From positions 74 through 64,073 of the forward strand of contig JAZOSU010000013.1 in the NCBI GenBank assembly GCA_045657265.1: a DNA stretch of 64,000 nt, read 5' to 3'. A model generated the notes under the pieces. The model was not told the DNA's origin. It did not search any database and saw only the letters and a list, made by a program, of their open reading frames with translations. This stretch comes from Eubacteriales bacterium. GTDB taxonomy: Bacteria; Bacillota; Clostridia; Oscillospirales; QAKW01. Shown here piece after piece: positions 51,516 through 64,000 of this stretch (positions are counted from its first letter, which is position 1; every line of letters starts with the position of its first letter). Made by a program: the position numbers and the translations under genes.

Positions 51516-51560
51516 TGGTCGAGGTGACAGGGTTCGAACCTGCGGCATCTAGTTCCCAAA
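51516..51560 (-). tRNA. 3' half of tRNA-Pro (UGG): anticodon loop to CCA only (truncated; probable att site)
   Basis: The minus strand reads TTTGGGA ACTAG ATGCC GCAGG TTCGAAC CCTGT CACCTCG A CCA. The C1:G72-type acceptor and UUUGGGA loop are typical of bacterial tRNA-Pro. The required 5' partners (CTAGT, CGAGGTG) are absent from 51561-51640. Confidence 0.65.
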
Positions 51561-51801
51561 GACGCGAACTAACATCCTTTGGCTGATTATGCGTGTTTTT
51601 GAGTCCATTATGTCGCTTTTAGCGTGCTTTTCCGTCCTATTTGTCCATTGATTCCATCGCTTACTTGCGTGGTTGTGGTCAAATATAGGGTCAAAATACA
51701 ACGACCACTCGAAATCTTTTGAGGATCAGAGTGGTCAATTTCATATTCATTTACCACCATCAGTATAACTCTACAACTGAATAAAGTCAAGTGTTTCTAA
51801 A

Positions 51802-51846
51802 AAGGCGAACTGCTCAATTCAATGAGTGGTTCGCCTTTTTTTATTT
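51802..51846 (+). terminator. terminator-like hairpin just upstream of the first element ORF
   Basis: AAGGCGAAC (51802-51810) / GTTCGCCTT (51829-51837) followed by TTTTTTTATTTT. Confidence 0.5.
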
Positions 51847-51869
51847 TCATCGAAAGGAGGTTTTACAGC

Positions 51870-52607
51870 ATGAGAAAAGACACCAATTTGGAAGGAGTGA
51901 AGTCTATAGCAAAGCAGCTTGTGATGGTGGACTTGTGCCTCACAGAGTATTCGCCTGTGGTGGTTCAGCATCCGTTTACTTCAAGCGGAATGGTTGCGAC
52001 TCCATCTGAAGACGGCATCCGCTTACTCGACATCACAAAGAGCAGTCATGATTTTAGAGAGTGGCAGAATTTCATCAAGGCTCAAATTGACCACGCCCGA
52101 AATGCCTATCACATCTACATGATGACAAACAAGCCGTATGCTCTTACCTTCTTAAAAATGGCGAAACCGTTTCTGTCAAAGCACGACTTCTCGGAAATCC
52201 TCTCTGATGCATGGATACGGTCTGAGAACCCTAACCTCGATGCCAACTTTACTCCGAATAAGTTGTTATCGTTGTTCAAGGATGCAGATCCGCAAATCCT
52301 CATGGACGGTGAAGAACGAGAGCAGCTTGAAGAACTTGATGATACTGTAACCGTGTATAGAGGTGTTACCTCCTACAATGCAGATAACATTAAGGCTTTG
52401 TCGTGGACACTCGATTATAAGACGGCTGAGTGGTTTGCACACCGCTTTGATGAAGACGGAACAGTCTATGAAGCACAAATCCCCAAGCAACACATCTATG
52501 CCTTGTTTAACGGCAGAGGTGAATCAGAAATCATTGTTGATCCGAAACACCTCACTGACATAACCGAATCACAAGGTATGGATACAGGAATGAATTTAAG
52601 TCAGTAA
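51870..52607 (+). CDS. hypothetical protein with C-terminal ADP-ribosyltransferase-like (R-S-E) motif order
   Basis: AAAGGAGG SD 9 nt before the ATG at 51870. The C-terminus has TVTVYRGV ... KALSWTLD ... GRGESEIIVDP in that order. Confidence 0.4.
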   Translation: MRKDTNLEGVKSIAKQLVMVDLCLTEYSPVVVQHPFTSSGMVATPSEDGIRLLDITKSSHDFREWQNFIKAQIDHARNAYHIYMMTNKPYALTFLKMAKPFLSKHDFSEILSDAWIRSENPNLDANFTPNKLLSLFKDADPQILMDGEEREQLEELDDTVTVYRGVTSYNADNIKALSWTLDYKTAEWFAHRFDEDGTVYEAQIPKQHIYALFNGRGESEIIVDPKHLTDITESQGMDTGMNLSQ

Positions 52608-52619
52608 AGGAGAAGACAA

Positions 52620-53198
52620 ATGAAAGAAACCTATAAGGTAAAAGTACCGAAGCACATCAAGGTTGGAGATCCTTGGTATTTCAAACAGTTTTCCGGCAGT
52701 GAGTTGGAACGACTGACCGTTGACAATGATATCCCGTCACATCTGACCGAGGCAAGAGTTACTCTCGAAGCAGAACCCTGCGAGGAAATGCCGGAATTAA
52801 CCATACTCGATATGACGCTCTATATCGCACCTAAGCAAACCATCGATACCTACCTTAGCGGTATGATGTATCCCTCACAGGAAATCAAACCGAAAGAGAT
52901 TGGCGTAGATACCGCCCGATACATTCTCGCCATTGGTGATAAAAGCCAAACCGTATATACAGGTGCTGATGGCGGTTGGGGTTGCTACTCCGAGTTTAAG
53001 CACAAAGACGGCAACAACAAACTGTTTGATGCAATCGTCTTGCAGATCGGTTTTAGTTGCGATTTCGATGACATGGAGAGCATGCGAAAGCGCCTTCACG
53101 AAATGTTCGAAGACGTTGAACAAATCGAAAACTTCGAAGTACCGGACGAAGATGAAGGCGAAGATGAAAATATGAATATTGGAGGTATGTCACAGTGA
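52620..53198 (+). CDS. hypothetical protein, acidic C-terminal tail
   Basis: AAGGAGAAG SD. 192 aa with tail DFDDMESM...FEDVEQIENFEVPDEDEGEDEN. The stop overlaps the next start (GTGA). Confidence 0.5.
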   Translation: MKETYKVKVPKHIKVGDPWYFKQFSGSELERLTVDNDIPSHLTEARVTLEAEPCEEMPELTILDMTLYIAPKQTIDTYLSGMMYPSQEIKPKEIGVDTARYILAIGDKSQTVYTGADGGWGCYSEFKHKDGNNKLFDAIVLQIGFSCDFDDMESMRKRLHEMFEDVEQIENFEVPDEDEGEDENMNIGGMSQ

Positions 53199-54046
53199 TA
53201 AATGCAATTATCAATCACAAAGACAAAACATCAGTGGTCGAATTCCCGATGGATCTGTACACCTTATATCACAGCCTTCATGAGATGGACTACCACGGCG
53301 GCCCCCACAGAGTGAACCTCACCGATAATGAAGAAGACGATATGCGTGTGAAGCTTTATTCCGATAATGACTTTGGAAACCACCTTATCCTTCTTTTCAA
53401 GGAAAGTGATACGCTCGAAGATGTCCACACTGTAGTCGGCGCAATTACCAATGCTCCGGATGAGGTCAAAGAGCAGCTTGAAGAATATATCCTTCACGAT
53501 CAGCTCGACAGCAAGGAAGAATTATATGACCTGCTCACCGAACTGAAGGAAGCTAACGCACCTGTCGTGACCACCTTCTACTGCCCGTTGTCCGGTCAGT
53601 TGAACGATGGCGAATACGATGACATGACCGAAGTGGATGGCAGATTTTTGAGAGATTATATCTCGGAAATCGAAGATGCATTAGACCGTGAACACTCTCC
53701 CGATTTCGAAATCGGTAATTACATTACGGATCATCCCACAGCCGATGCAAAGATCAAGATGGCAAGATGGTCGGTTGAAGAAATTGGCGGTGTGCTCTAC
53801 GGCAGAATCGACTGTCGTTCTGCTGAGGCGTTCACCCCCGAAGAAATCGAAGCTATCAAGGATGGCATATCCGGTCAGAACAGTGATGGTTTCGGTGAAG
53901 GCTTCGAACAGCGTGAAATCCATACGGATGACGGCGACTTGTATGTGTCGTTCTGGCAGTCAGGAAACGATTACTTCGTCCATACTCAAAGCGAGATGGA
54001 TGAGTATATAAATCAAGGCCAAGGCTTAAAGATGGGAGGAATGTAA
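53195..54046 (+). CDS. hypothetical strongly acidic protein (283 aa)
   Basis: GTG start coupled to the upstream stop. My hand count gives about 63 D/E against about 20 K/R. No motif recognised. Confidence 0.5.
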   Translation: MINAIINHKDKTSVVEFPMDLYTLYHSLHEMDYHGGPHRVNLTDNEEDDMRVKLYSDNDFGNHLILLFKESDTLEDVHTVVGAITNAPDEVKEQLEEYILHDQLDSKEELYDLLTELKEANAPVVTTFYCPLSGQLNDGEYDDMTEVDGRFLRDYISEIEDALDREHSPDFEIGNYITDHPTADAKIKMARWSVEEIGGVLYGRIDCRSAEAFTPEEIEAIKDGISGQNSDGFGEGFEQREIHTDDGDLYVSFWQSGNDYFVHTQSEMDEYINQGQGLKMGGM

Positions 54047-54049
54047 TAT

Positions 54050-54397
54050 ATGGCTGTGCTTTTCTCTGCGGTAACCGTTACGGCTATCGCAAAAGGCGAA
54101 CAATTGGAACTTCTTGTCGGTGGAGTTCCAAGAGAGTACGATGACCTTGTAGGTTGGACGGCTTTCGATAATTTCATTGGCGAAATCGATGAGGATATGG
54201 ATATCAGTGTTCACGCAGATGCATACATCTACGGCGAAGGCGAAATATTCAAAGCAACGCCCGAAGAAGTCGCATATTTCTATATGCGAAGAAACGACAA
54301 TGCTGACTTCCTCAATGACAGATGCCAAAACATTGAGAAGGTTGACTTCGACTTCAATTGGTCTACCGATGAATTATTTGGAATGGAGATGAAGTAA
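54050..54397 (+). CDS. hypothetical acidic protein (115 aa)
   Basis: GGGAGGA SD embedded in the upstream gene. About 25 D/E against 8 K/R by hand count. Confidence 0.45.
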   Translation: MAVLFSAVTVTAIAKGEQLELLVGGVPREYDDLVGWTAFDNFIGEIDEDMDISVHADAYIYGEGEIFKATPEEVAYFYMRRNDNADFLNDRCQNIEKVDFDFNWSTDELFGMEMK

Positions 54398-54721
54398 ATG
54401 AGCATTTTTCAGGAATGGGCTGAGTTAGCCAAGGAAAACAAAGCAAAATATCCGCCCGGCACTCGAATCGAACTGATTCAGATGAACGATCCGTTTGCTC
54501 CCGTACCTGCAGGTACTCGTGGTACTGTTAACCACGTGGACGATGCCGGTCAGTTGCATATGCAGTGGGATAACGGTCGTACCCTCGCCCTTGTTTCAGG
54601 TGAAGATGCCTTCAGAAAACTCACTGAAAAAGAACTCGCCGAAGAACAGAAGGCTGAGAAAGAACAGGAAAACAATGAAAATTTGGACGAGGACGAAAGT
54701 GGCCCCGTCATGACGATGTGA
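54398..54721 (+). CDS. DUF4314-domain protein
   Basis: PPGTRIELIQMNDPFAPVPAGTRGTVNHVDDAGQLHMQWDNGRTLALVSGEDAF matches my memory of the DUF4314 pattern found on conjugative elements. It has an acidic/K-rich tail. Confidence 0.55.
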   Translation: MSIFQEWAELAKENKAKYPPGTRIELIQMNDPFAPVPAGTRGTVNHVDDAGQLHMQWDNGRTLALVSGEDAFRKLTEKELAEEQKAEKEQENNENLDEDESGPVMTM

Positions 54722-54760
54722 GGTGAAACGGAAAAATAATAAGTAAAGCTCGGATGCTCT

Positions 54761-55927
54761 ATGGCTATTCGATTTTTTGACATGTTCTCCGGCATCGGCG
54801 GTTTCCGTTCGGGTCTTGAATGGATAGGCGGTTTTGAGTGTATCGGCCATTGCGAAATCGACAAATATGCTAACCAAGCCTACAACGCTATTTACGAACC
54901 GAAAGGAGAACTGTTTTATGAAGATGCAAGAACAATCAACCCCGATAACCTGCCCGATATCGACCTTATATGCGCAGGATTTCCTTGTCAGGCTTTTTCA
55001 ATTGCTGGAAGACGGCAAGGATTTGACGATGCAAGAGGAACTCTCTTCTTTGAAATTGCCCGAATTGCCGCCGTTAAAAGACCTCCATTTTTGCTACTTG
55101 AAAATGTTCCCGGACTCCTATCGCATGACGGCGGGTGGACTTTTGCGACCATCCTCCTTACGCTTTCTGAATTGGGGTACGATGTCACATGGCAAGTGCT
55201 TAACAGCAAGGATTTTGGTGTTCCTCAATCCCGAAAACGAGTGTATATTATCGGATTTCTTAGAGAGCGATGCGCCGGAGAAATATTGGCTTTCAATGAA
55301 GCAAATGTTAAGGCTCTTGCACAACGCATTCCCGGACGCGAAGGTAACCGTGTGTATTCCACAGACGGAGTCGCAATCACCCTTACAAGTAATGCCGGAG
55401 GATTCGGAGGAAAAACCGGACTCTACGAAATAAATACGCCGACCGATGAAGAAACACCCTGTGATTCGCAGGGTGTATTTTTTATCGATATGAACGAAGG
55501 TGCGAAGCTGACGGATACTGCTCGATGCATTACAGCACGGCAAGACTCCGGCATCAGCAAGCACAAAGGCGAACACTCAGGTGTTTTCGTTGAGGATCGC
55601 GCAAGAGCTGTCAACTCTCCCGAAAGAGATACGGTAAGACAGCAAGGCAGACGAATCAAAGAGCCGGACGAGCCGATGTTTACTCTGACAACACAGGATA
55701 AGCACGGCATTATGAGATACGGCAGAGTCAGAAGACTGATGCCGATTGAATGCTTCCGTCTCCAAGGATTCACTGATGAACAATTCAAGAAAGCAGAAGC
55801 TACCGGACTCAAGGACGGACGGCTGTACAAGATGGCAGGTAACGCAGTAAGTGTACCTGTCATTTCTGCTTTGGGAATGTTCATCAAATCAATCGCAGAC
55901 AAACACAATATTGGAGGTGAAAACTGA
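54761..55927 (+). CDS. dcm: DNA (cytosine-5)-methyltransferase, orphan
   Basis: Motif I FDMFSGIGGF, motif IV GFPCQAFS, motif VI LLENVPGL, motif VIII QSRKRVYIIG, motif X GNAVSVPV. Confidence 0.9.
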   Translation: MAIRFFDMFSGIGGFRSGLEWIGGFECIGHCEIDKYANQAYNAIYEPKGELFYEDARTINPDNLPDIDLICAGFPCQAFSIAGRRQGFDDARGTLFFEIARIAAVKRPPFLLLENVPGLLSHDGGWTFATILLTLSELGYDVTWQVLNSKDFGVPQSRKRVYIIGFLRERCAGEILAFNEANVKALAQRIPGREGNRVYSTDGVAITLTSNAGGFGGKTGLYEINTPTDEETPCDSQGVFFIDMNEGAKLTDTARCITARQDSGISKHKGEHSGVFVEDRARAVNSPERDTVRQQGRRIKEPDEPMFTLTTQDKHGIMRYGRVRRLMPIECFRLQGFTDEQFKKAEATGLKDGRLYKMAGNAVSVPVISALGMFIKSIADKHNIGGEN

Positions 55928-57204
55928 TGTTGACTAAGAAAGTTATGACTCTTGAATTATCAAGGGAAAACCAATTCTCCGATGGATACTTGTATAGATC
56001 CCTCGAACTTCCTGCACAAGAGTATGAAATCAGGGATGCATTACAGCAGCTCCGTCAGAGAAGTGCAGACATTACGCCCGATCAGATCGAAATCTATAAC
56101 AGCGTGTATATTCCGCAGCTTGAAGATAAACGGTTCGACAGTCCTACGATTGATGAACTGAACTTCTTTGCCAAGCGACTTGCAGCTATGGACGAGAACG
56201 ATATGGCGATTATGCAAGCACTATGCTCCCGTTATATCAAGGATGATGACGAACTCGTTAGCATCAAGGATCTCATCAATATGACATACGGATTGGACAG
56301 CGTGTCTGTCCTTTCCAATGTCACAAACGATGAGCAACTTGCAGACTTCGTTATTGAAAACGAGATGCAAGATGATGTAGCAAGCGTTCCCGAAAATGCA
56401 CGATACCTGTTGGACAAAGCGAGAATCGGTAAGTTGCAGCGTGAAATGGACGGTGGCGTGTACAGTGGCAAGTTCTATGTATGCACCGATCATTTCGAGA
56501 TGCCGAAGGTGTATGACGGCAAGACCTTGCCCGAATCAACGCATGAACCGTGGTTTGCTTTCAGATTGCAGGTTGCACAGGCACCGCAAAGCGATGAACC
56601 CTTCGCAGAACCTGTCGAATGGATATCTCTTCCGATGACGGATGAAGCGATGAAAGAGGTAGCAAAACGGCACAATGCATCAAGTCTCAAAGACCTTGTG
56701 TACTACGATTTTGAGTCGAGTGTACCTCAGATCACAACGGATGATTTCACGCAGATGCTCGATATTGAAAAGTTGAATGCATTAGCTTTCACTATGGCTG
56801 AGATGTCGCCGGATGAACAGATTACGTTCAAGGCAGCACTCGAAGCTGAAAGAAAACACGGCATTAACCTTGACGATATTTTGAACATCTCAAACAACCT
56901 GCACCGTTATGAGATGAATACCAACTGCGAAGGTGCTTCTGACTTCTTCAAGCAGTATCTGCTCACGCACATGGATACCAAGTTCGATGATCGTTGGCTG
57001 GATCCTCTTGTCTACCGCCGTGAAGGTAGCAGATTGCTTGAAAAGCTCGGTGCTACTGTAACGGACTACGGCATTATCTCCTCTGCCGGTGGCTCACTTT
57101 ATAAGCTCGTTTCCTACGATTCCGATGAATCTGAAACGGAAGATATTGCTCCCGATGAGGACGAGGACTTGGGCGAAGATGAAGGGATGGTGATGAGTTT
57201 ATGA
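55927..57204 (+). CDS. ArdA-like antirestriction protein, apparently two ArdA-like modules in tandem
   Basis: Residues ~20-200 align by eye with Tn916 ArdA (..LELPAQEYEI.., TIDELNFFAKRL, VPENARYLLDKARIGKL...GGVYSGKFYV). Residues ~230-400 repeat the pattern (LPMTDEAMKEV.., DIEKLNALAFTM, ..DYGIIS). The tail is acidic. The start overlaps the dcm stop (TGATG). Confidence 0.5.
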   Translation: MLTKKVMTLELSRENQFSDGYLYRSLELPAQEYEIRDALQQLRQRSADITPDQIEIYNSVYIPQLEDKRFDSPTIDELNFFAKRLAAMDENDMAIMQALCSRYIKDDDELVSIKDLINMTYGLDSVSVLSNVTNDEQLADFVIENEMQDDVASVPENARYLLDKARIGKLQREMDGGVYSGKFYVCTDHFEMPKVYDGKTLPESTHEPWFAFRLQVAQAPQSDEPFAEPVEWISLPMTDEAMKEVAKRHNASSLKDLVYYDFESSVPQITTDDFTQMLDIEKLNALAFTMAEMSPDEQITFKAALEAERKHGINLDDILNISNNLHRYEMNTNCEGASDFFKQYLLTHMDTKFDDRWLDPLVYRREGSRLLEKLGATVTDYGIISSAGGSLYKLVSYDSDESETEDIAPDEDEDLGEDEGMVMSL

Positions 57205-57341
57205 CCGAACTTGCGTGGCTCATTACCGGACTTCTGCTTGGCGGTTGTATCGGAATCACCCTCATGTGCTGTCTGCAGCTCAATCGTATCAACGCCTACG
57301 AAGCGGAGATACAAAAGCTGAAAGAGCAAATCAAGAAATAA
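57201..57341 (+). CDS. small single-pass membrane protein (46 aa)
   Basis: MTELAWLITGLLLGGCIGITLMCCLQLNRINAYEAEIQKLKEQIKK. ATGA overlap with the upstream stop. Not in the supplied ORF track because it is under 60 aa. Confidence 0.4.
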   Translation: MTELAWLITGLLLGGCIGITLMCCLQLNRINAYEAEIQKLKEQIKK

Positions 57342-57348
57342 GTAAAAC

Positions 57349-57390
57349 AACGGTGTCTTTCAAAATGAAGGACACCGTTCCTTTGTTTTG
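57349..57390 (+). terminator. rho-independent terminator
   Basis: AACGGTGTC (57349-57357) / GACACCGTT (57371-57379) followed by CCTTTGTTTTG. Confidence 0.6.
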
Positions 57391-58404
57391 ATTGCACCTT
57401 GTAGAAACGAGGTGATCAAAATAAAAACCCCTGTATCAAGAGTTGGAAACAAGACATCCATACTGCACATTCTGTATGCTTGTTTTCCCGTTAAATTTAA
57501 CAGGTTTATCGATGTATTCGGTGGTTCGGGTAGCGTGCTGCTCGGCAAACCGGAGGTACACTCCTTTGAAGTGTATAACGACTTTGACAGAAACCTCGTT
57601 AATCTGTTTCACTGCATGAAAGAAAGAACGATGGCAACGATCCGTGAACTCGGATTCTGCAATCTTAACTCCCGTGAAGATTTTATTGCCATCCGCCGAT
57701 TTTTAGAGCATGAACAGTTTAGCGATGATTACCTGTCAGAAGAACTGCATCTAACCGAGATCATGGTGCCTCCTCCCGATGCAAAGGAATTACAGGAATT
57801 GCGTAAGCGTATCACATTAGACCATGATGTGCGCCGTGCCGCTATGTTTCTGAAACTGCTCCGCTACAGTTATTCAAGCAGCGGAAAGTCCTTTGCCTCA
57901 CAACCGTTTGATATCCGAAGGCTCTTCGGTCTCATCCAAGAGCTTGAAGACAGAATGGCAAATGTGATCATTGAGAATCAGGACTTTGAAACCCTTATCA
58001 AGCACTATGACAGACCGGATTCGTTCTTCTATCTGGACCCTCCTTACTTCTCGACCGAGGATATGTATGAGGTGGGATTTGGATGGGATGACCATGTACG
58101 ACTCAGGGATACGCTGAAGAATATCAAAGGTAAGTTCCTTCTGTCGTATAACGATTGTCCCGAAATCAGAGAACTCTACGAAGGGTTTTCAATGCTCGAC
58201 TTCTCCCGAACACATTCAATGGCACAGAGATACGAAGCTGGAAAGCAATTCGGCGAACTGCTCATTGCCAACTATGACCTGTTCGAGAGAGAAAAGAACA
58301 AACCGCAACAGTTAACCCTCTTCAATGTCTATGGCATGGAAGAAGATTACGACTACGAAAAAATACTGAAGGAGTGTATTATATCATGCAAAATAAGACC
58401 TTAA
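57388..58404 (+). CDS. DNA N6-adenine methyltransferase (Dam/D12-class), orphan
   Basis: Motif I FIDVFGGSGSV and catalytic DPPY (FFYLDPPYFS). The start is uncertain: TTG at 57388 or GTG at 57412. Confidence 0.85.
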   Translation: MIAPCRNEVIKIKTPVSRVGNKTSILHILYACFPVKFNRFIDVFGGSGSVLLGKPEVHSFEVYNDFDRNLVNLFHCMKERTMATIRELGFCNLNSREDFIAIRRFLEHEQFSDDYLSEELHLTEIMVPPPDAKELQELRKRITLDHDVRRAAMFLKLLRYSYSSSGKSFASQPFDIRRLFGLIQELEDRMANVIIENQDFETLIKHYDRPDSFFYLDPPYFSTEDMYEVGFGWDDHVRLRDTLKNIKGKFLLSYNDCPEIRELYEGFSMLDFSRTHSMAQRYEAGKQFGELLIANYDLFEREKNKPQQLTLFNVYGMEEDYDYEKILKECIISCKIRP

Positions 58405-58691
58405 AGGAAACCATGTACGAATTCTGCGACATCGTTGCAGAGGAACTCGATAAGAAAGCATACACTGCGGTGATGCTTCCTATCCCTACGGATTTGCTTG
58501 TCAAAGCAGACATCAAGCCTAACGACAAACTGATTATGATTGCCGAAGATGGCAAGTTAACCATTCAGGCATCCTGCCGTATGGAATGCAGTGCTGACTG
58601 CAACAACTGTCCGGTAGATGATATCGAGTGCGATGGCGATTGTGAAAATTGCCCTTGCCGTTTTAATTGCGATGATTCGGAGGTGGACTAA
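58386..58691 (+). CDS. AbrB/SpoVT-like fold protein with 9-Cys acidic C-terminal tail
   Basis: VMLPIPTDLLVKADIKPNDKLIMIAEDGKLTIQ resembles a swapped-hairpin barrel. The tail reads CRMECSADCNNCPVDDIECDGDCENCPCRFNCDD. Overlaps the methylase 3' end by 19 nt. Confidence 0.45.
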   Translation: MQNKTLKETMYEFCDIVAEELDKKAYTAVMLPIPTDLLVKADIKPNDKLIMIAEDGKLTIQASCRMECSADCNNCPVDDIECDGDCENCPCRFNCDDSEVD

Positions 58692-58694
58692 AAT

Positions 58695-59012
58695 ATGGCG
58701 AAGTTGTTACGTATCCTCGGTAAGCGCGGTCGCATTACCATCCCTTATGAAATCCGTCAGCGTGTCGGTTTCCGATACAATGATGTGCTTTCCTTTGAGG
58801 AAAGTGCTGACGGCCGTAGTGTTGTTGTGAAACGTGAGAAGATCTGTGATAACTGCAAAAGAGAGCAACCCGAAAAAGATGACAAGGTTACTCTCTTTGA
58901 TTTTTTGAATGGCTTATCTCCCGAACAGCAATACGCAGCTCTCGTCCACCTCTCTATGAAGTGGGCAGAGCGTAAAGGCGGTGAAGAAAATGGCAGAGAA
59001 AACATTGTATAG
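58695..59012 (+). CDS. AbrB/SpoVT-family DNA-binding protein
   Basis: LGKRGRITIPYEIRQRVGFRYNDVLSFEESADGRSVVVKRE is a typical SpoVT-AbrB domain. Confidence 0.65.
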   Translation: MAKLLRILGKRGRITIPYEIRQRVGFRYNDVLSFEESADGRSVVVKREKICDNCKREQPEKDDKVTLFDFLNGLSPEQQYAALVHLSMKWAERKGGEENGRENIV

Positions 59013-59703
59013 ATGGTCTTTGCAAGAAGCTCAAAAGCTGGGTGAAGTCGACCTTTGGCGTGAGTCATATAAGGAAAACTGCACCTGCGCAAGAGCAATT
59101 GAAGACTTCATCGCCAACCACTACGCTGACAACTGCCTCAACACAGACGGCGTAGAGGAATTGATTGACAGATTCGGTTTTAACCGTCTCAATTGGGTGC
59201 TTGCGAATACCATTCAGCGAAAGGAAGCTGACGGCAGAATCCGTGAGGAAAACAAGGCTTGGGCGAGAACCACCTATATCCCTAACGATGATATTCGTTG
59301 GCATTACGAGGTCGACTCCCATCCCGGACTGACTGATTTGTTTACCAACCGTGTTCGTAAAGAATGGAACGCTCTCGGCTTGTTCGAGAAGAAACACTGC
59401 ACTAACGAAGGCGATTACGAAGGAAAGGTTCTTGCATTAAAACCGAGTGTTTTGAAGCATGAATATCAGTCGCCCGATTACCAACTGTTCTATGCAACAG
59501 GAGGTTTCGGGTGTGATCCTTCCAAGATCGGCACAGCAGTCTATGGATATTTCCTCAAAGACGATGAACACACCCATTTCAGACGTCAGGATTTTATCGG
59601 TGTCGTTGATGAAGAATACCTTCCCGATTGGGCAAAGGAGAAGCTCGAAGCACCCGACTCAGATGAGTCCGAAGATATTACTATTGGAGGTATGCAGCAG
59701 TGA
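58990..59703 (+). CDS. DUF3849-domain protein
   Basis: LYRWSLQEAQKLGEVDLWRESYKENCTCARAIEDFIANHY..N.L......ELIDRFGFNRLNWVLANTIQ.K..DGR...ENKAWA matches my memory of DUF3849. Confidence 0.65.
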   Translation: MAEKTLYRWSLQEAQKLGEVDLWRESYKENCTCARAIEDFIANHYADNCLNTDGVEELIDRFGFNRLNWVLANTIQRKEADGRIREENKAWARTTYIPNDDIRWHYEVDSHPGLTDLFTNRVRKEWNALGLFEKKHCTNEGDYEGKVLALKPSVLKHEYQSPDYQLFYATGGFGCDPSKIGTAVYGYFLKDDEHTHFRRQDFIGVVDEEYLPDWAKEKLEAPDSDESEDITIGGMQQ

Positions 59704-60368
59704 GAGTAAACATTTATCACATCAACAAAGCAAGGGATGTCAACGGCAAACTCTATTCCGTTTATCAGAACGGAGATGTAGTTGACCCCTCAATCTATGA
59801 CGAGGTATTCAGTGCAGAACTTGATACCACAAACCTCGAAGAAATCCATCGAATGATGAAATTCGAAGGTCATCCGCTGATGAGAGCCGCGAACCTTACG
59901 GTGTCCGATGTTGTGGTCATCAATGGCAGAGCCAGTATCTGTCAGCCTCGCGGATTTGAGGAAATCGACTTCGACGTGAGCAAAACGCAGAAGCCGGATA
60001 ACCTCATGCGTGTAGTGTATGTTGAACCCAACAAACCTGCCTATATTGCAGATGTTGAACATACACTGGAGGCAGAACAAAAGGCAGTTGGTGGCGGTCT
60101 TATTCAGCCTGTGTATTTAGAGGATGATAATACCTGCATCATTTGCAATGAAGAAGCGAAGCTCAACGGTATGGAAGGCAACAGACGGTTCGGAGATGGT
60201 ACATCTATCATCGCCGGACCGTTTTTTGTTTGCGGTCTTACCGAGGATGACTTTAGATCATTAACGGATGAGGAGGTGACGAAATATATGGACAAGTTCG
60301 CTGTGCCTGACCAAATCAGTCAGGACGAAGTCGAAGCCGACATGGGCTTCACATTTATCCCTATGTAA
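59700..60368 (+). CDS. YodL-like domain + DUF3846 domain protein
   Basis: GTG start overlapping the upstream stop. The N-terminus (IYHINK...YDEVFSAEL....LEEIHRMMKFEGHPLMRAANLTVSDVVVING) is YodL-like. The C-terminus (MRVVYVEPNKPAYIADVEHTLEAEQKAVGGGLIQPVY...IICNEEAKLNGMEGNRRF...GPFFVCG) is DUF3846-like. Confidence 0.6.
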   Translation: MRVNIYHINKARDVNGKLYSVYQNGDVVDPSIYDEVFSAELDTTNLEEIHRMMKFEGHPLMRAANLTVSDVVVINGRASICQPRGFEEIDFDVSKTQKPDNLMRVVYVEPNKPAYIADVEHTLEAEQKAVGGGLIQPVYLEDDNTCIICNEEAKLNGMEGNRRFGDGTSIIAGPFFVCGLTEDDFRSLTDEEVTKYMDKFAVPDQISQDEVEADMGFTFIPM

Positions 60369-60395
60369 CAAATAACGAAAGTGAGGTAACGCCTT

Positions 60396-60842
60396 ATGGC
60401 AACTAAAAAAACAACCCCCAAGGCAGCTCCTAAGACTGCCGAGAAGAAAACCAATCAGACTGTGGATAACAATCAGACCGCAGAAAAGCCTCAGTACCGT
60501 GTACCGTTCATTTCTGCCAAGATCGACAGACTTGTTGATTACGATGGTAGTAAGGTGAAGGCAATCGCAAGCGCGGTTATTGGCAACCATTTTGCCGTCC
60601 ACGGCTTCAAGGTTATCGAAAACGATGCCGGTGAACTCGCCGTTTTGAATCCTGCGACAAAGGGTTCTGACGGTAAGTATTATGATAACTTCCACGCAAT
60701 CAGCAAAGATGGTCGTGAAGCTATCAACGGATATATTCTCGATGCCTATGAGCAGAAACTCGCTGAGGAACAAGGCGAGGATCAGGATGCCGAACAGGGC
60801 GAAACTGCCGATGAAGACCAAACAGTCGGCCCCAGTATGTAG
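60396..60842 (+). CDS. SpoVG-like protein with acidic tail
   Basis: DGSKVKAIASAVIGNHFAVHGFKVIENDAGELAVLNPATKGSDGKYYDNFHAISKDGREAINGYILDAYE aligns by eye with the SpoVG core (MKAIASITID..FVVHDIRVI.G..GLFVAMPS.R...G.F.DIAHPI....RE.I...VL). Confidence 0.6.
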   Translation: MATKKTTPKAAPKTAEKKTNQTVDNNQTAEKPQYRVPFISAKIDRLVDYDGSKVKAIASAVIGNHFAVHGFKVIENDAGELAVLNPATKGSDGKYYDNFHAISKDGREAINGYILDAYEQKLAEEQGEDQDAEQGETADEDQTVGPSM

Positions 60843-60921
60843 CCTTTTCGGTTAAAGTTTAGCATAAACGCTGGACTTTTCAGTTTCTCTTTGTATCCTA
60901 AAGGTAAAGAGGTGAACTATT

Positions 60922-61797
60922 ATGATGAAAAGATTACTATCTGCCTTCCTATGTGCTCTCCTTATTGTGAGCCTTTCAGGATGCAAAACTCAACCTGTAG
61001 GTGATGGTTCCGAGATTGCTTCGAGTATCACCGAAACCGCTAAAATGACTGTGTCAGATGTGACATCGGGCAACGATGAAACGACAAAGAGCGATGACAT
61101 CACTGCCACAGAAAGCGAAACGGAAAGCACCGAAGAAAGTAGTTTGACTTCCGAAAAGAAATCCATACCTACAGAAAAAGAAACAACTGAAAAGGCAGAA
61201 CCACCCACACAAAAGGTTGAGGAAACAAAACCTCAAACCAAACCGACAGAAACGCAACCCGAATCAAAGCCAAAGGAAGAACCGGTTAAGGAAACGACCA
61301 CACCAACTGAACCTGTGGTAACAGAAACACCGTATGTAAGACCAAGTGCTTCTGAGGTGGAGAAAGCGGTTGTAAAGTATGTCAATCAATATCGACTTGC
61401 TCAGAGTAGCACCGAAACCACAACACTGCCCGGACTCACAAACGTGGCAAGACATCGAGCAAACCAACTGATATCAAACTTTGCTCATACCGACATCAGA
61501 ACAGTGTGCGCCGAACTCAAGTACGGCAAGTATGTGGACATGACGGAGTATGGGCATCCCGAAACGGACAACTACTATGAAGGCTATAACCGAGAAGCAA
61601 TCGCCAAAGGCGGTTGGGGCGGTACGGCTGATGAGATAGCAGAAAGAATCGCAACGGGATTTAAGAACAGTACAAATCACTGGAGATATGTTGGAGATTC
61701 AAAGTACGGATATATGTCGGTAGGCGTAACCTACAACGAAGCCGATGGAATGTGGTATGTGTGTATCTGTATGAGCAAAGAAAACTACGGCGGTTAA
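60922..61797 (+). CDS. lipoprotein with T/E/K/P-rich linker and CAP (SCP/PR-1-like) domain
   Basis: Lipobox VSLSGC. A low-complexity linker of about 110 aa. The C-terminal domain (KAVVKYVNQYRLAQ..., HTDI.., NHWRYVGDSKYGYMSVGV) looks CAP-like. Confidence 0.55.
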   Translation: MMKRLLSAFLCALLIVSLSGCKTQPVGDGSEIASSITETAKMTVSDVTSGNDETTKSDDITATESETESTEESSLTSEKKSIPTEKETTEKAEPPTQKVEETKPQTKPTETQPESKPKEEPVKETTTPTEPVVTETPYVRPSASEVEKAVVKYVNQYRLAQSSTETTTLPGLTNVARHRANQLISNFAHTDIRTVCAELKYGKYVDMTEYGHPETDNYYEGYNREAIAKGGWGGTADEIAERIATGFKNSTNHWRYVGDSKYGYMSVGVTYNEADGMWYVCICMSKENYGG

Positions 61798-61810
61798 ACC
61801 GTAATAAGCA

Positions 61811-61856
61811 AGGTGGAGTTTGATGCATAAGCATCAGGCTCCACCTATTTTTTATT
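61811..61856 (+). terminator. rho-independent terminator
   Basis: AGGTGGAG...CTCCACCT long hairpin (inner TGATGC/GCATCA) followed by ATTTTTTATTT. Confidence 0.6.
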
Positions 61857-61880
61857 TCAATCTATGAAAGGATGATTTGA

Positions 61881-64000
61881 ATGAAATCTATCAGTAACAA
61901 TTGGAAAAGAACAATGGCGATGTTGCTTGCGGTAATTATGGTGATTGCAGCATTCCCGATGAACGCCTTTGCCGCCGTTGCCTCTGATCTTCCCGAAAAC
62001 ATGGCTGACCACGCTATTCTTAGAGCGTTGGAGTACACTGGTTATGACGTGCAGAAGCAGAAGAATGATGGCACTCTTTATCAGACCAACAGTTATGGTT
62101 CGAGAACCCCTGCAGCTGTGCTTTCTAACATCAGTTATGGCACAAGCACCTCAGGTAAAGAAACCGTTGCAGACAGTTCTACGGTGACCGGCAAAGCACC
62201 GGCAATCGCAACCTTTGAAAGCAAAGGTCTTTGCTGTGCGTCCTTCGTAACCTATTTCGTTTGCAACTATCTGCCTAACATCGAAGGTGCGAATACACAG
62301 TTTATTACCGATGCAATCAATGCAACCGGAATGAACTCTCAGGCTGTTGTAACTTGGCAGACGGCTCTCAACAAACTTGCCAATGAAGGTAAGATCGAGA
62401 AGATCGGCACAAGTTCCTCTAATGTCAATCGAAGCAAACTCACCCCCGGCGACCTTATTATCTTTGGTACTGCTGAAAACTCCCATACCCACATCGCAGT
62501 ATATTCGGGAACCTACAAAGGCGTTGACTACATTATCCATGTTGGTAATGATAGAGGCCCCGAAATCTCCCGTGTTGACTGGATGGGTCAGGCTGGCGAC
62601 AAGTCTTCGTATCCTAACGCATACTACCATCTTCCCGAAGAATTCTTTGAGAATGACGGTACTATCGAAATCTACAAGAAGGATACCAATGGCAAGTCTC
62701 TTGCAGGTGCGACCTTTACCGCAACCGATAGTGCGACCGGTACGAAATATGTAATCGGCCCCACCAATTCCAATGGCTATGCGGAATACACTCTCCCTTA
62801 CGGAACTTATACCGTAGTAGAGTCAGCATTTCCTACCAACTACCGAGCATACGGTACTGCCTCTTGGACGGTTACGCTCGACAGTTCTTCTCCTAACGGA
62901 ACGGTAACTATCAATGCCGTAAATGAACTAATCCCCGGCAATTGTAAGATTGTCAAGACCAGTGAAGACGGCAAGGTTGACGGCATCGACTTCACCATTA
63001 CAGGTAACGGCGTTAATAAGACGGTCACGACTGCAAATGGCGGTCAGATCACCGTTAAGGATCTTAAACCCGGCACCTATACTGTGACCGAGAAAGCCAT
63101 CGACAAATACGAGCCTCAGTCGAGTCAGAGCGTAACAATCGTAAGTGGTCAGACTGCAACGGTCAACTTCTCCAACACCTTAAAGCGTGGCGACCTCAAG
63201 GTAACCAAGACTTCTGAGGACGGCCTCGTAGAAGGCGTACAGTTTAAACTCACAGGTACGTCCCTCAGCGGTGAAAAGATTGAGCAGTTCGCAGTAACCA
63301 ACGCAAAAGGTATCGCAACCTTCTCTGATGTCCTTATCAGTGGCAATGTGAAATACACCTTGTCCGAAGTAAACACCGCAGAGCGATACGAAGTTCCTGC
63401 TTCTCAGTCTGTGGCTGTTGAGTGGAATAAGGTGACCGAAACCTCCGTATATAACAAACTCAAGCGCGGTGATTTGAAGATCACCAAAACGAGTGAAGAC
63501 GGTATGGTTGAAGGCGTTAAGTTCCGCTTGACTGGAACCTCTCTCAGCGGTGAGAAAATCGACTTGACTGCTACCACCAATGCAAACGGTGTGGCACTCT
63601 TCGAAGATATCCTCATCACTGGTCATTCCACCTATACCGTAACTGAGGTTGACACCAAGGCGTATTATATCGCCCCTGTAGCTCAGTCGGTTTCTATCGC
63701 ATGGAATGAAGTTACCAACAAGTCGTTCTATAACGAACTCAAGCGTGGCTCTCTCCGTGTACAGAAGACTTCCGAAGATGGATTCGTGGAAGACATGAGA
63801 TTCCGTCTCACCGGAACCTCTGATTCTGGCATTAAGGTAGACGAAACTGTCTATACCGATGCAAACGGCGTTGCTCTGTTCGAAGATATCCTCATCGGCA
63901 AGAACTATGTACTGACAGAGGAAAAAACGCCTATCCGTTATGTCGTACCTGCTAAGCAGACTGTGGATATTGCGTGGAACAGCGTAACAGGTGCATCCGT
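61881..64000 (+). CDS. secreted surface protein: NlpC/P60-like cysteine peptidase domain + Cna-B/SpaA-type Ig-fold repeats (3' partial)
   Basis: I translated this open frame from the ATG at 61881 to the window end without meeting a stop. It is absent from the ORF track because no stop codon lies in the window. Signal peptide ...AAFPMNAFA|AVAS. Peptidase motifs GLCCASFV ... HTHIAVYSG ... IIHVG. At least five ~93-aa repeats follow (GxLxIxKxxEDG..VEGVxFxLTG...). Confidence 0.8.
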   Translation, partial: MKSISNNWKRTMAMLLAVIMVIAAFPMNAFAAVASDLPENMADHAILRALEYTGYDVQKQKNDGTLYQTNSYGSRTPAAVLSNISYGTSTSGKETVADSSTVTGKAPAIATFESKGLCCASFVTYFVCNYLPNIEGANTQFITDAINATGMNSQAVVTWQTALNKLANEGKIEKIGTSSSNVNRSKLTPGDLIIFGTAENSHTHIAVYSGTYKGVDYIIHVGNDRGPEISRVDWMGQAGDKSSYPNAYYHLPEEFFENDGTIEIYKKDTNGKSLAGATFTATDSATGTKYVIGPTNSNGYAEYTLPYGTYTVVESAFPTNYRAYGTASWTVTLDSSSPNGTVTINAVNELIPGNCKIVKTSEDGKVDGIDFTITGNGVNKTVTTANGGQITVKDLKPGTYTVTEKAIDKYEPQSSQSVTIVSGQTATVNFSNTLKRGDLKVTKTSEDGLVEGVQFKLTGTSLSGEKIEQFAVTNAKGIATFSDVLISGNVKYTLSEVNTAERYEVPASQSVAVEWNKVTETSVYNKLKRGDLKITKTSEDGMVEGVKFRLTGTSLSGEKIDLTATTNANGVALFEDILITGHSTYTVTEVDTKAYYIAPVAQSVSIAWNEVTNKSFYNELKRGSLRVQKTSEDGFVEDMRFRLTGTSDSGIKVDETVYTDANGVALFEDILIGKNYVLTEEKTPIRYVVPAKQTVDIAWNSVTGAS
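63183..64000 (+). repeat. 279-nt (93-codon) tandem coding repeats, three copies in window
   Basis: Units start at 63183, 63462 and 63741 (KRGDLKVTKTSEDG.. / KRGDLKITKTSEDG.. / KRGSLRVQKTSEDG..). They are diverged at the DNA level. Two more distant Cna-B-like units lie at ~62650 and ~62940. Confidence 0.8.

Follow-up and report, generated by a model that had tools for sequence, protein, structure and literature searches.

What does a compact block of small genes, all on one strand, contribute to a mobile element when it lies directly inside the end of that element? The question is raised by positions 51870-60842 of a 64,000-nt stretch of DNA (the window, by which we mean the whole stretch that was analysed) from a Eubacteriales bacterium (Oscillospirales; QAKW01), namely positions 74-64,073 of the forward strand of contig JAZOSU010000013.1 in assembly GCA_045657265.1. 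Here, 14 co-oriented open reading frames (ORFs) follow one another on the plus strand, and we refer to them together as the island. Our answer, drawn from comparisons with related sequences, is that the block is probably an island for anti-restriction and establishment, carried by an integrative conjugative element (ICE) that occupies tRNA-Pro(UGG) in gut Clostridia. The accepted anti-restriction determinants in it, all in a single orientation, are ArdA-like domains and two methylases without a nuclease partner.

The island is tightly packed, as its junctions are either overlaps of 1-32 nt or gaps of 0-46 nt, and 130 of its 8,973 nt are non-coding. An earlier note on this DNA had counted sixteen genes, but the ORF listing gives 14, which is also what that note's own inventory adds up to; its description of one-strand genes that overlap or lie less than 50 nt apart agrees with every junction. 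We compared the island proteins with Pfam, NCBIfam, PHROGs, PADLOC, and the PDB (Table 1). Nearly all domain calls made beforehand from the letters reappeared in Pfam, the second of two AbrB calls being the weak one, and the three proteins listed as unknown and acidic (ORF2, ORF3, and ORF4) proved to have low isoelectric points (pI) and no family match. In agreement with what had been claimed, the island contains no integrase, relaxase, ATPase, or nuclease that we could find. PADLOC recognizes the two methylases only, which is consistent with methylases lacking a nuclease partner, and the remaining 12 ORFs gave no nuclease or defence-model match in Pfam or PADLOC.

The ArdA-like protein passes the PF07275 profile cut-off and is strongly acidic. 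Each of its halves alone scores about 20.7 bits against Pfam ArdA and the whole-protein score of 33.8 bits is the sum of both, so the description "tandem ArdA-like" holds, if weakly. The Pfam profile alone sees both halves; BLASTP of one half against the other finds no repeat, and a sequence search gives no match to solved ArdA. In one related locus (L006), the protein is encoded as two separate genes.

That the island lies directly inside an element end, as the earlier note had it, is borne out by a rise in guanine-plus-cytosine (GC) content from about 0.37 to about 0.46 at 51.5 kb (host approximately 35%, element 46%) and by a tRNA-Pro junction that is found in at least five host contexts. 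The half-tRNA precedes the island in L006, L007, L008, L012, L100, and L101, where it shows host-specific base differences and is flanked by unrelated genes; because it recurs in this manner, we consider the element to be inserted site-specifically in tRNA-Pro. ARAGORN found no whole tRNA at 51516-51560. The DNA of the element starts at approximately 51555-51562, which places the insertion at the anticodon-loop region of tRNA-Pro(UGG), and the island begins about 310 bp inside this left end. Islands that are 98-100% identical to that of the window occur in other host flanks, both in genomes and in metagenomes (L008, L009, and L100-L105), and their presence beside unrelated flanks points to recent transfer between hosts.

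The kind of element becomes apparent from its relatives. A scan with the YodL/DUF3846 protein yielded nine loci in genomes of Acutalibacteraceae, Oscillospiraceae, Avilachnospira, and other Clostridia, and the order and orientation of the island are conserved at 57-100% protein identity (L006-L013 and L017-L019) in several Oscillospirales hosts. To the right of the SpoVG gene, the relatives carry on one strand a CAP-like lipoprotein, a 1,749-aa SpaA-repeat adhesin, and DUF7768 and DUF3852 proteins. These are followed by TrbL_5 (VirB6-like), a sortase, a VirB4-like ATPase, several small genes, and DUF6103, then by a gap of 0.3-0.5 kb, a 137-aa gene, a MobL relaxase (PF18555), and a DUF3991/Toprim primase, and lastly by a VirD4 coupling protein, a helix-turn-helix (HTH) protein, and variable cargo. 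The TrbL_5, sortase, VirB4-like ATPase, MobL, and Toprim genes were seen in L017-L019, and VirD4 in L025. In the window, the adhesin gene (61881 onward) opens this conjugation module, and in L017-L019 its full-length 1,749-aa homologues precede the type IV secretion genes. Judged by gene content and order, then, the block belongs to an ICE in tRNA-Pro(UGG) of gut Clostridia. Among plasmids and phages, a DNA similarity search with 51800-64000 returned short methylase matches only, a MobL scan of viral contigs gave a single short locus, and a match to the leader sequence in viral contigs was dismissed as chance, since it lies inside a phage gene.

Could the block simply be accessory cargo without a role in transfer, for example, methylases for host epigenetic regulation together with unrelated small genes? 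The methylases do lack a nuclease partner, orphan methylases can be regulatory, and the island is far from the candidate origin of transfer (oriT). Yet the order and content of the island are conserved while the true cargo differs among elements, all of its domains are typical of conjugative elements and phages, and it combines tight operon packing with a constant location, the element end on one side and the mating adhesin on the other. We regard this explanation as very unlikely.

Table 1. Features of the island, its surroundings, and the candidate oriT of related loci (positions refer to the window unless a locus is named)
Feature	Position	Strand	Basis
tRNA-Pro(UGG) 3' half, anticodon loop to ACCA; attachment-site remnant at left end	51516-51560	-	read from sequence
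Conserved non-coding leader, probably attachment-site (att) arm and regulatory region	51561-51869	+	alignment of relatives
Promoter-like site facing outward, TTGACT-17-TATACT	51790-51762	-	promoter scan, 10/12 matches
Strong terminator-like hairpin, 18 pairs and T run, ending ~20 nt before ORF1 ribosome-binding site	51799-51840	+	
ORF1, 245 aa, putative R-S-E ADP-ribosyltransferase-like	51870-52607	+	invariant motif residues, weak fold matches
ORF2, 192 aa, acidic, pI 4.4	52620-53198	+	no family match
ORF3, 283 aa, acidic, pI 4.3, two-module family	53195-54046	+	homologue clusters, fusion
ORF4, 115 aa, acidic, pI 4.05, conserved beside ORF3	54050-54397	+	no family match
DUF4314 protein, 107 aa	54398-54721	+	Pfam 102.5 bits
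C5 cytosine DNA methyltransferase, no nuclease partner	54761-55927	+	Pfam 263 bits; PADLOC type II and orphan methylase models
Tandem ArdA-like acidic protein, 425 aa, pI 4.3	55927-57204	+	Pfam ArdA (PF07275) 33.8 bits, cut-off 27
DUF3789-like membrane peptide, 46 aa	57201-57341	+	Pfam 21.8 bits, cut-off 22
Terminator-like hairpin between two apparent transcription units	57349-57379	+	
D12-class N6-adenine DNA methyltransferase, no nuclease partner	57388-58404	+	Pfam 95.6 bits; PADLOC methylase models
ORF10, 101 aa, possible AbrB/SpoVT-like hairpin and Cys-rich (CxxC-type) acidic tail	58386-58691	+	weak MazE match
AbrB/MazE-fold DNA-binding protein, 105 aa, pI 9.0	58695-59012	+	Pfam 24.9 bits, cut-off 24.7; TIGR01439 AbrB E 1.9e-5
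DUF3849 protein, 240 aa	58981-59703	+	Pfam 142.9 bits
YodL + DUF3846 two-domain protein, 222 aa	59700-60368	+	Pfam YodL 32.2 bits, DUF3846 105 bits
SpoVG-like protein, 148 aa, Lys-rich N-terminal extension and acidic tail	60396-60842	+	Pfam 53.9 bits
Tail-bearing proteins: ORF1-4, DUF4314, ArdA, DUF3849, YodL/DUF3846, SpoVG	C-termini within 52580-60842		
CAP-like lipoprotein, neighbour outside island	60922-61797	+	Pfam CAP 20.2 bits, cut-off 21.1; position conserved in relatives
SpaA/Cna-B repeat surface adhesin, N-terminal 706 aa of ~1,750 aa	61881-64000	+	translation; runs off window
Candidate oriT	L017 17900-18236; L018 17900-18426; L019 17636-18156; L022 9162-9524		

If the block is indeed an anti-restriction and establishment island, its products could divide the work as follows. 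On entry into a new cell, the C5 and N6-adenine methylases would methylate the new duplex, and the tandem ArdA-like protein would inhibit type I restriction enzymes by DNA mimicry. ORF1, an R-S-E ADP-ribosyltransferase (ART)-like protein that is also found in phages, would modify a host target, and the basic AbrB-fold protein and its Cys-rich neighbour ORF10 would control expression of the island. The remaining proteins (DUF4314, DUF3849, YodL + DUF3846, the SpoVG-like protein, and ORF2-4) may be stand-alone forms of domains that are fused in polyvalent proteins, and they would act on the incoming DNA or on host defences.

The assignment of ORF1 draws on its invariant residues and its predicted fold. 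It has no Pfam match, ART families included, and PDB sequence searches gave nothing usable, but it matches phrog_4776 in PHROGs (E 1e-32) and has at least 1,328 homologues (E <= 0.001) of uniform length. In an alignment of 26 homologues, R164, S178, E218, and E220 are invariant, and the motifs Y163-R164, S178-W179-T180, and E218-S219-E220 are invariant or nearly so; at the sequence level, ORF1 thus carries the Arg, Ser-x-Ser/Thr, and Glu-x-Glu of the R-S-E motif. Its AlphaFold model has a predicted local distance difference test score (pLDDT) of 81.8, with a disordered C-terminal tail. The informative low-E PDB matches found with Foldseek are KptA/Tpt1, the CNFy toxin (domains 4-5 plus a larger N-terminal fragment), TreTu, ParT, and PARP10/14, with E 0.014-2 and template modelling (TM) scores of 0.2-0.3, and the top 25 also hold a few unrelated folds such as chaperonin-10. 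A full-length match (E 4e-11) was obtained to an uncharacterised Gordonia phage protein, and homologues occur in 109 phage genomes, mostly of mycobacteriophages, where all are annotated as hypothetical. Going by motif and model, ORF1 is plausibly an R-S-E ADP-ribosyltransferase. Of the earlier label "ART-like", the invariant R-S-E residues and the fold matches within the ART superfamily stand, whereas the fold scores are weak and Pfam offers nothing. A 72%-identical homologue is present in a different kind of element (L002 10001-16851; also L003-L005), where its neighbours are a DEAD-box helicase and a DUF1281_C/LPD28 protein and three serine recombinase genes lie farther downstream; this suggests that ORF1 is a module that moves between element families.

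These fold matches also bear on whether the island is an addiction (toxin-antitoxin) module, in which ORF1 would be an ADP-ribosylating toxin like ParT or DarT and the AbrB/MazE-fold protein its antitoxin. ParT and TreTu are among the fold matches of ORF1, and the AbrB protein (58695-59012) matches the MazE and PrlF antitoxin families, but 6 kb separates the two genes, the gene after that of the AbrB protein encodes DUF3849 and no known toxin, and ORF1 homologues occur in phages and beside polyvalent-protein domains without antitoxin-like neighbours. ORF1 also has no fixed partner, because the gene that follows it is variable or absent. Taken together, we find an addiction module highly improbable.

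A regulatory role fits the AbrB/MazE-fold protein and ORF10 better. The former is the sole basic protein of the island, and its residues 8-36 are invariant among relatives. ORF10 reaches 13.4 bits (E 0.075, below the cut-off) against MazE_antitoxin, its hairpin aligns with the AbrB neighbour in hhalign with E 0.0056 and a probability of 6.6%, and its cysteines are conserved among relatives; to judge from these features, it is probably a regulatory partner of the AbrB/MazE-fold protein encoded next to it. Two AbrB-fold proteins had been called beforehand, of which that at 58695-59012 exceeds the Pfam cut-off and that at 58386-58691 is weakly supported. Likewise, among the five ORFs proposed as candidates for new anti-defence activities, the one at 58386 looks more like a regulator (together with the AbrB protein) than an effector.

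Three of the other four candidates, ORF2, ORF3, and ORF4, match nothing in Pfam, NCBIfam, PHROGs, or PADLOC, and PDB sequence searches gave nothing usable for ORF2 and ORF3, nor for ORF4, the YodL/DUF3846 protein, or the ArdA protein. Confident homology of the unknown ORFs to replication, partition, or assembly functions, which the earlier note had named as a finding that would speak against its idea, was not encountered. The slot of ORF2 is variable: L012 lacks the gene, and L013 has a 167-aa ORF and a 379-aa ArdA protein in its place. ORF3, on the other hand, belongs to a large family, with 669 close homologues (E <= 0.001), all of 283 aa, and 1,467 clusters at 50% identity. Its C-terminal module (approximately residues 122-283) is fused behind ArdA, or ArdA + LPD28, in P0470, P0381, and P0462, and this fusion ties ORF3 to anti-restriction by association. 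No relation between ORF3 and the island ArdA protein was detected with hhalign, and ORF3 has no match among 72,556 plasmids. ORF4 is present in all close relatives at 57-99% identity. Its residues 29-67 (54134-54250) align locally with the C-terminal domain of an alanine racemase (PDB 4luy; whole-sequence E 6.8e-5, domain E 0.056), a match that is probably not meaningful.

With these proteins in mind, one may ask whether the block serves mainly DNA processing and establishment. In that case, the SpoVG-like protein, DUF3846, DUF3849, DUF4314, and ORF2-4 would bind or protect the incoming single strand and aid second-strand synthesis, recircularisation, or integration, and anti-restriction would be confined to ArdA and the methylases. 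The SpoVG-family match (which extends to solved SpoVG structures, E 2e-7) favours this, as does the position of YodL + DUF3846 among the best-conserved island genes (86-98% identity in close relatives), alongside ArdA and the D12 methylase, which are comparable. The same holds for the acidic tails of the island proteins, which we take to resemble the C-terminal tips of single-strand-binding proteins (SSBs). Moreover, in the proposal of Iyer et al. (PMC5512222), YodL does not count among the counter-restriction domains. Against it stand the lack of a match to any replication, recombination, or single-strand-binding family, the primase and relaxase encoded elsewhere in the element, the fusion of the ORF3 C-terminal module to ArdA, and the variable ORF2 slot, which behaves as an arms-race locus. 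On balance, we think it unlikely that DNA processing is the main task of the island.

The tails deserve attention in their own right. In 9 of the 14 island proteins, the C-terminus is a short peptide of Gly, Met, and hydrophobic residues, with Met among the last five positions, preceded by a linker that is net acidic in 8 of the 9; the net charge is -3 or lower in 7, whereas ORF1 and ORF3 reach net -2 only. Examples are ...DEDEGEDENMNIGGMSQ, ...NLDEDESGPVMTM, ...GEDEGMVMSL, ...DEVEADMGFTFIPM, and ...ADEDQTVGPSM. Met in the last five residues is found in 9/14 island proteins against 5/48 host proteins in the window (Fisher p = 1.2e-4), and the combination of an acidic linker and Met in 7/14 against 2/48 (p = 2e-4). 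Diverse members of the ORF3 family (less than 50% mutual identity) mostly end in MGGM or MGGI, and similar tails occur on the primase and other soluble conjugation-region proteins of relatives (L013, L015, L018, and L022). We considered whether the tail Gly-Gly merely reflects the ribosome-binding site of the next gene. This is partly right, as ATTGGAGGT encodes IGG in ORF2, the C5 methylase, and DUF3849, and the related GGGAGG encodes MGG in ORF3; it falls short because tails also precede gaps of 27-80 nt and because the terminal Met remains to be accounted for.

Several reports make it possible that the tail is a secretion signal: C-terminal signals are common among type IV secretion substrates (PMC11288057), plasmid-encoded proteins move along with the DNA during transfer of F-type plasmids (PMC8406263), and polyvalent-protein domains are predicted to be delivered together with the DNA (PMC5512222). 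We put forward only tentatively, and with more doubt than confidence, that the tail is recognized by the type IV coupling protein of the element. It could also be a degron that makes the proteins short-lived, or a mimic of the SSB tail. Should it be a secretion signal, the island would be a source of small effectors that the donor synthesizes and injects alongside the DNA, as an operon-encoded counterpart of polyvalent proteins. The tail would then represent a new class of Gram-positive type IV secretion signals, and protein co-transfer in Gram-positive conjugation would become directly testable.

When the island enters the recipient depends on the oriT and on which strand is nicked. The only oriT candidate, identified in relatives, is the gap that precedes the 137-aa gene and MobL. 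This gap contains a GC-rich inverted repeat, the arms of which covary between relatives, and beside it an invariant block TCACA(T/G)CGGACGGCAA(C/A)GCCGACCG with a second small repeat inside. A likeness of one repeat arm to the flank of the pLS20 nic site was dropped, because that arm varies between relatives. MobL of pLS20 nicks the template strand (PMC5313138), and as a general rule the relaxase enters last, with relaxosome genes in the lagging region (PMC11541004). If this precedent and this rule hold, the minus strand would move leftward, the secretion genes would enter first, and the island would follow within the first 15-25 kb (15.4-24.4 kb from the candidate oriT, ORF positions 17-30), its transferred strand being the template for all island genes. 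Such a pLS20-like polarity, if real, would fit both the orientation rule and the finding that leading-side anti-defence genes cluster, are co-oriented, and are enriched in the first 30 ORFs (PMC11541004). A nick in the plus strand, on the other hand, would bring in the island after the relaxase, primase, coupling protein, cargo, and integrase. Of the establishment/counter-defence module proposed in the earlier note, the conjugative element, the ArdA-like domains, and the two partnerless methylases have been upheld, whereas its early entry would depend on which strand is nicked.

The leader between the tRNA-Pro half and ORF1 is conserved among relatives. A hairpin at approximately 51706-51740 is kept through compensatory changes, as is the hairpin at 51799-51840 in L006 and L012, and folding z-scores of the leader are -2.9 (DNA, minus strand) and -5.1 (RNA, plus strand). 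It does not fold into one long promoter-bearing hairpin, and Rfam gave no match at the gathering threshold across 45-64 kb. The outward promoter-like site would, in an excised circle, read over the junction toward the other end of the element. With a strong hairpin before each (51799-51840 and 57349-57379), the island appears, from its predicted hairpins, to be split into two transcription units.

Several observations weigh against an anti-restriction and establishment island. The structure of the candidate oriT is compatible with nicking of either strand, which makes early entry conditional, and in L017 a distance of 15.4 kb with 16 genes separates it from the SpoVG gene to its left. A Frpo-like single-strand promoter was not seen in the leader of approximately 310-330 nt, which has short terminator-like hairpins only, although no dedicated Frpo model was available for this search; nor is there a convincing plus-strand promoter upstream of ORF1, where a strong terminator-like hairpin is found instead. 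The ArdA, ART, and second AbrB assignments rest on weak scores, the structure prediction of ORF3 has a pLDDT of only 38, and by sequence comparison four families (ORF2, ORF3, ORF4, and largely ORF10) are without an assignable activity. Finally, the window ends in the adhesin, and the secretion and relaxase genes are deduced from relatives. The window covers 64,000 of the 64,215 bp of the contig, so that the assembly breaks off within the repeats of the adhesin gene. Nor was the integrase end reached: the 10-kb flanks beyond MobL finish in cargo, and no tRNA-Pro was found in 49 loci.

Some observations at either end of the element and on its host stand apart from this argument. Just outside the left end, a metagenome contig encodes a 491-aa protein with a C-terminal tyrosine-recombinase domain (L101 1102-2577). 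We rejected it as the integrase of the element, as none of the loci holds a relative and it is probably part of a neighbouring element, possibly a second one that shares the tRNA-Pro site. Downstream of the coupling protein, the cargo in L022 (17019-21791) includes a GNAT domain fused to a nucleotidyltransferase/AadA_C and an APH phosphotransferase fused to a kinase domain, and from these domains the element family may carry resistance genes of the aminoglycoside-modifying type. In L025 (5513-10690), an open frame of more than 1,726 aa lies after the coupling protein and HTH genes, with BiPBP_C at its last residues as the only Pfam match; it may encode a giant surface or polyvalent-type protein. 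This contig stems from the same metagenome as exact copies of the ORF1 and SpoVG genes of the window. As for the host, its Tex protein and its aldo-keto reductase each form a 90% cluster with no other member, from which we take the host to be a poorly sampled low-GC species.

How does the island compare with known systems? It most resembles the leading-region anti-defence islands of Samuel et al. (2024, PMC11541004) in being a dense one-strand cluster on a conjugative element that combines anti-restriction genes, partnerless methylases, toxin-antitoxin-like genes, and small genes of unknown function. Provided that the relaxase enters last, the island would also share their position on the leading side, in the first 30 ORFs, with the transferred strand as template. 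Unlike those islands, it is set apart from the candidate oriT by type IV secretion genes, no Frpo/ssi-type single-strand promoter was found, and SSB, PsiB, and anti-CRISPR genes are not present in it. It resides on a chromosomal ICE whose relaxase is of the MobL type, which that study does not name. In the searchable part of the supplements to PMC11541004, only YodL (as an 8-member family) and ArdA occur among the domain names of the island.

The establishment islands of pLS20 (Val-Calvo et al. 2021, PMC8708921) likewise belong to a Firmicutes element with a MobL-family relaxase, and there, too, operons of anti-restriction and other establishment genes have their own upstream regulatory sequences, hairpins among them. 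In pLS20, however, the transferred strand is the non-template strand for the establishment operons, which are under EGeRS control, and the anti-restriction protein is ArdC (PMC8708921), whereas the genes of our island run in the same direction as the conjugation genes and encode ArdA, ART-like, and DUF proteins.

With polyvalent proteins (Iyer et al. 2017, PMC5512222), the island shares a vocabulary of ART, ArdA, YodL, methylase, and LPD-associated domains, as well as a role that is predicted for the very start of invasion. Elsewhere, the C-terminal module of ORF3 is joined to ArdA + LPD28, and an ORF1 homologue adjoins an LPD28 protein (L002). The island differs from them in encoding separate small proteins in an operon rather than one giant polypeptide, and it contains no processing peptidase. 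Its largest protein is 425 aa, and the only two-domain products are YodL + DUF3846 and tandem ArdA, so that the island does not qualify as a polyvalent protein; on domain content, the relation is one of shared domains and not of membership.

ArdA itself is well known from Gram-positive conjugative transposons of the Tn916 type, where ardA (orf18) encodes a DNA mimic that acts on entry. The element described here is similar in being a Gram-positive integrated conjugative element with ArdA, but Tn916 has one canonical ArdA instead of a divergent tandem repeat within a 14-gene island, and the relaxase and secretion-system families differ. Closer to home, the variable regions of Faecalibacterium ICEs (PMC12084326) combine conjugation modules of gut Clostridia with polyvalent or single-domain YodL and anti-restriction proteins; in the searched text of that paper, the island, the tRNA-Pro site, and the ORF1-4 families are not described.

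The grouping of anti-defence genes on conjugative elements is already published, in the form of leading-region islands, pLS20 islands, and polyvalent proteins. New here are the size of the ORF3 family and its fusion to ArdA/LPD28, and the C-terminal tail that the island proteins share. The element family is very common in gut and rumen metagenomes, as illustrated by the 1,328 homologues of ORF1 and 669 of ORF3 (E <= 0.001) and by the more than 7,000 homologues (E <= 1e-30) that a TrbL search returned. To our knowledge, almost no counter-defence genes of anaerobic Firmicutes have been tested. For these bacteria, the island offers a compact and conserved list of candidate counter-defence genes, among them an ADP-ribosyltransferase-like family held in common with mycobacteriophages, the very large ArdA-associated ORF3 family, and the acidic ORF2 and ORF4 families.

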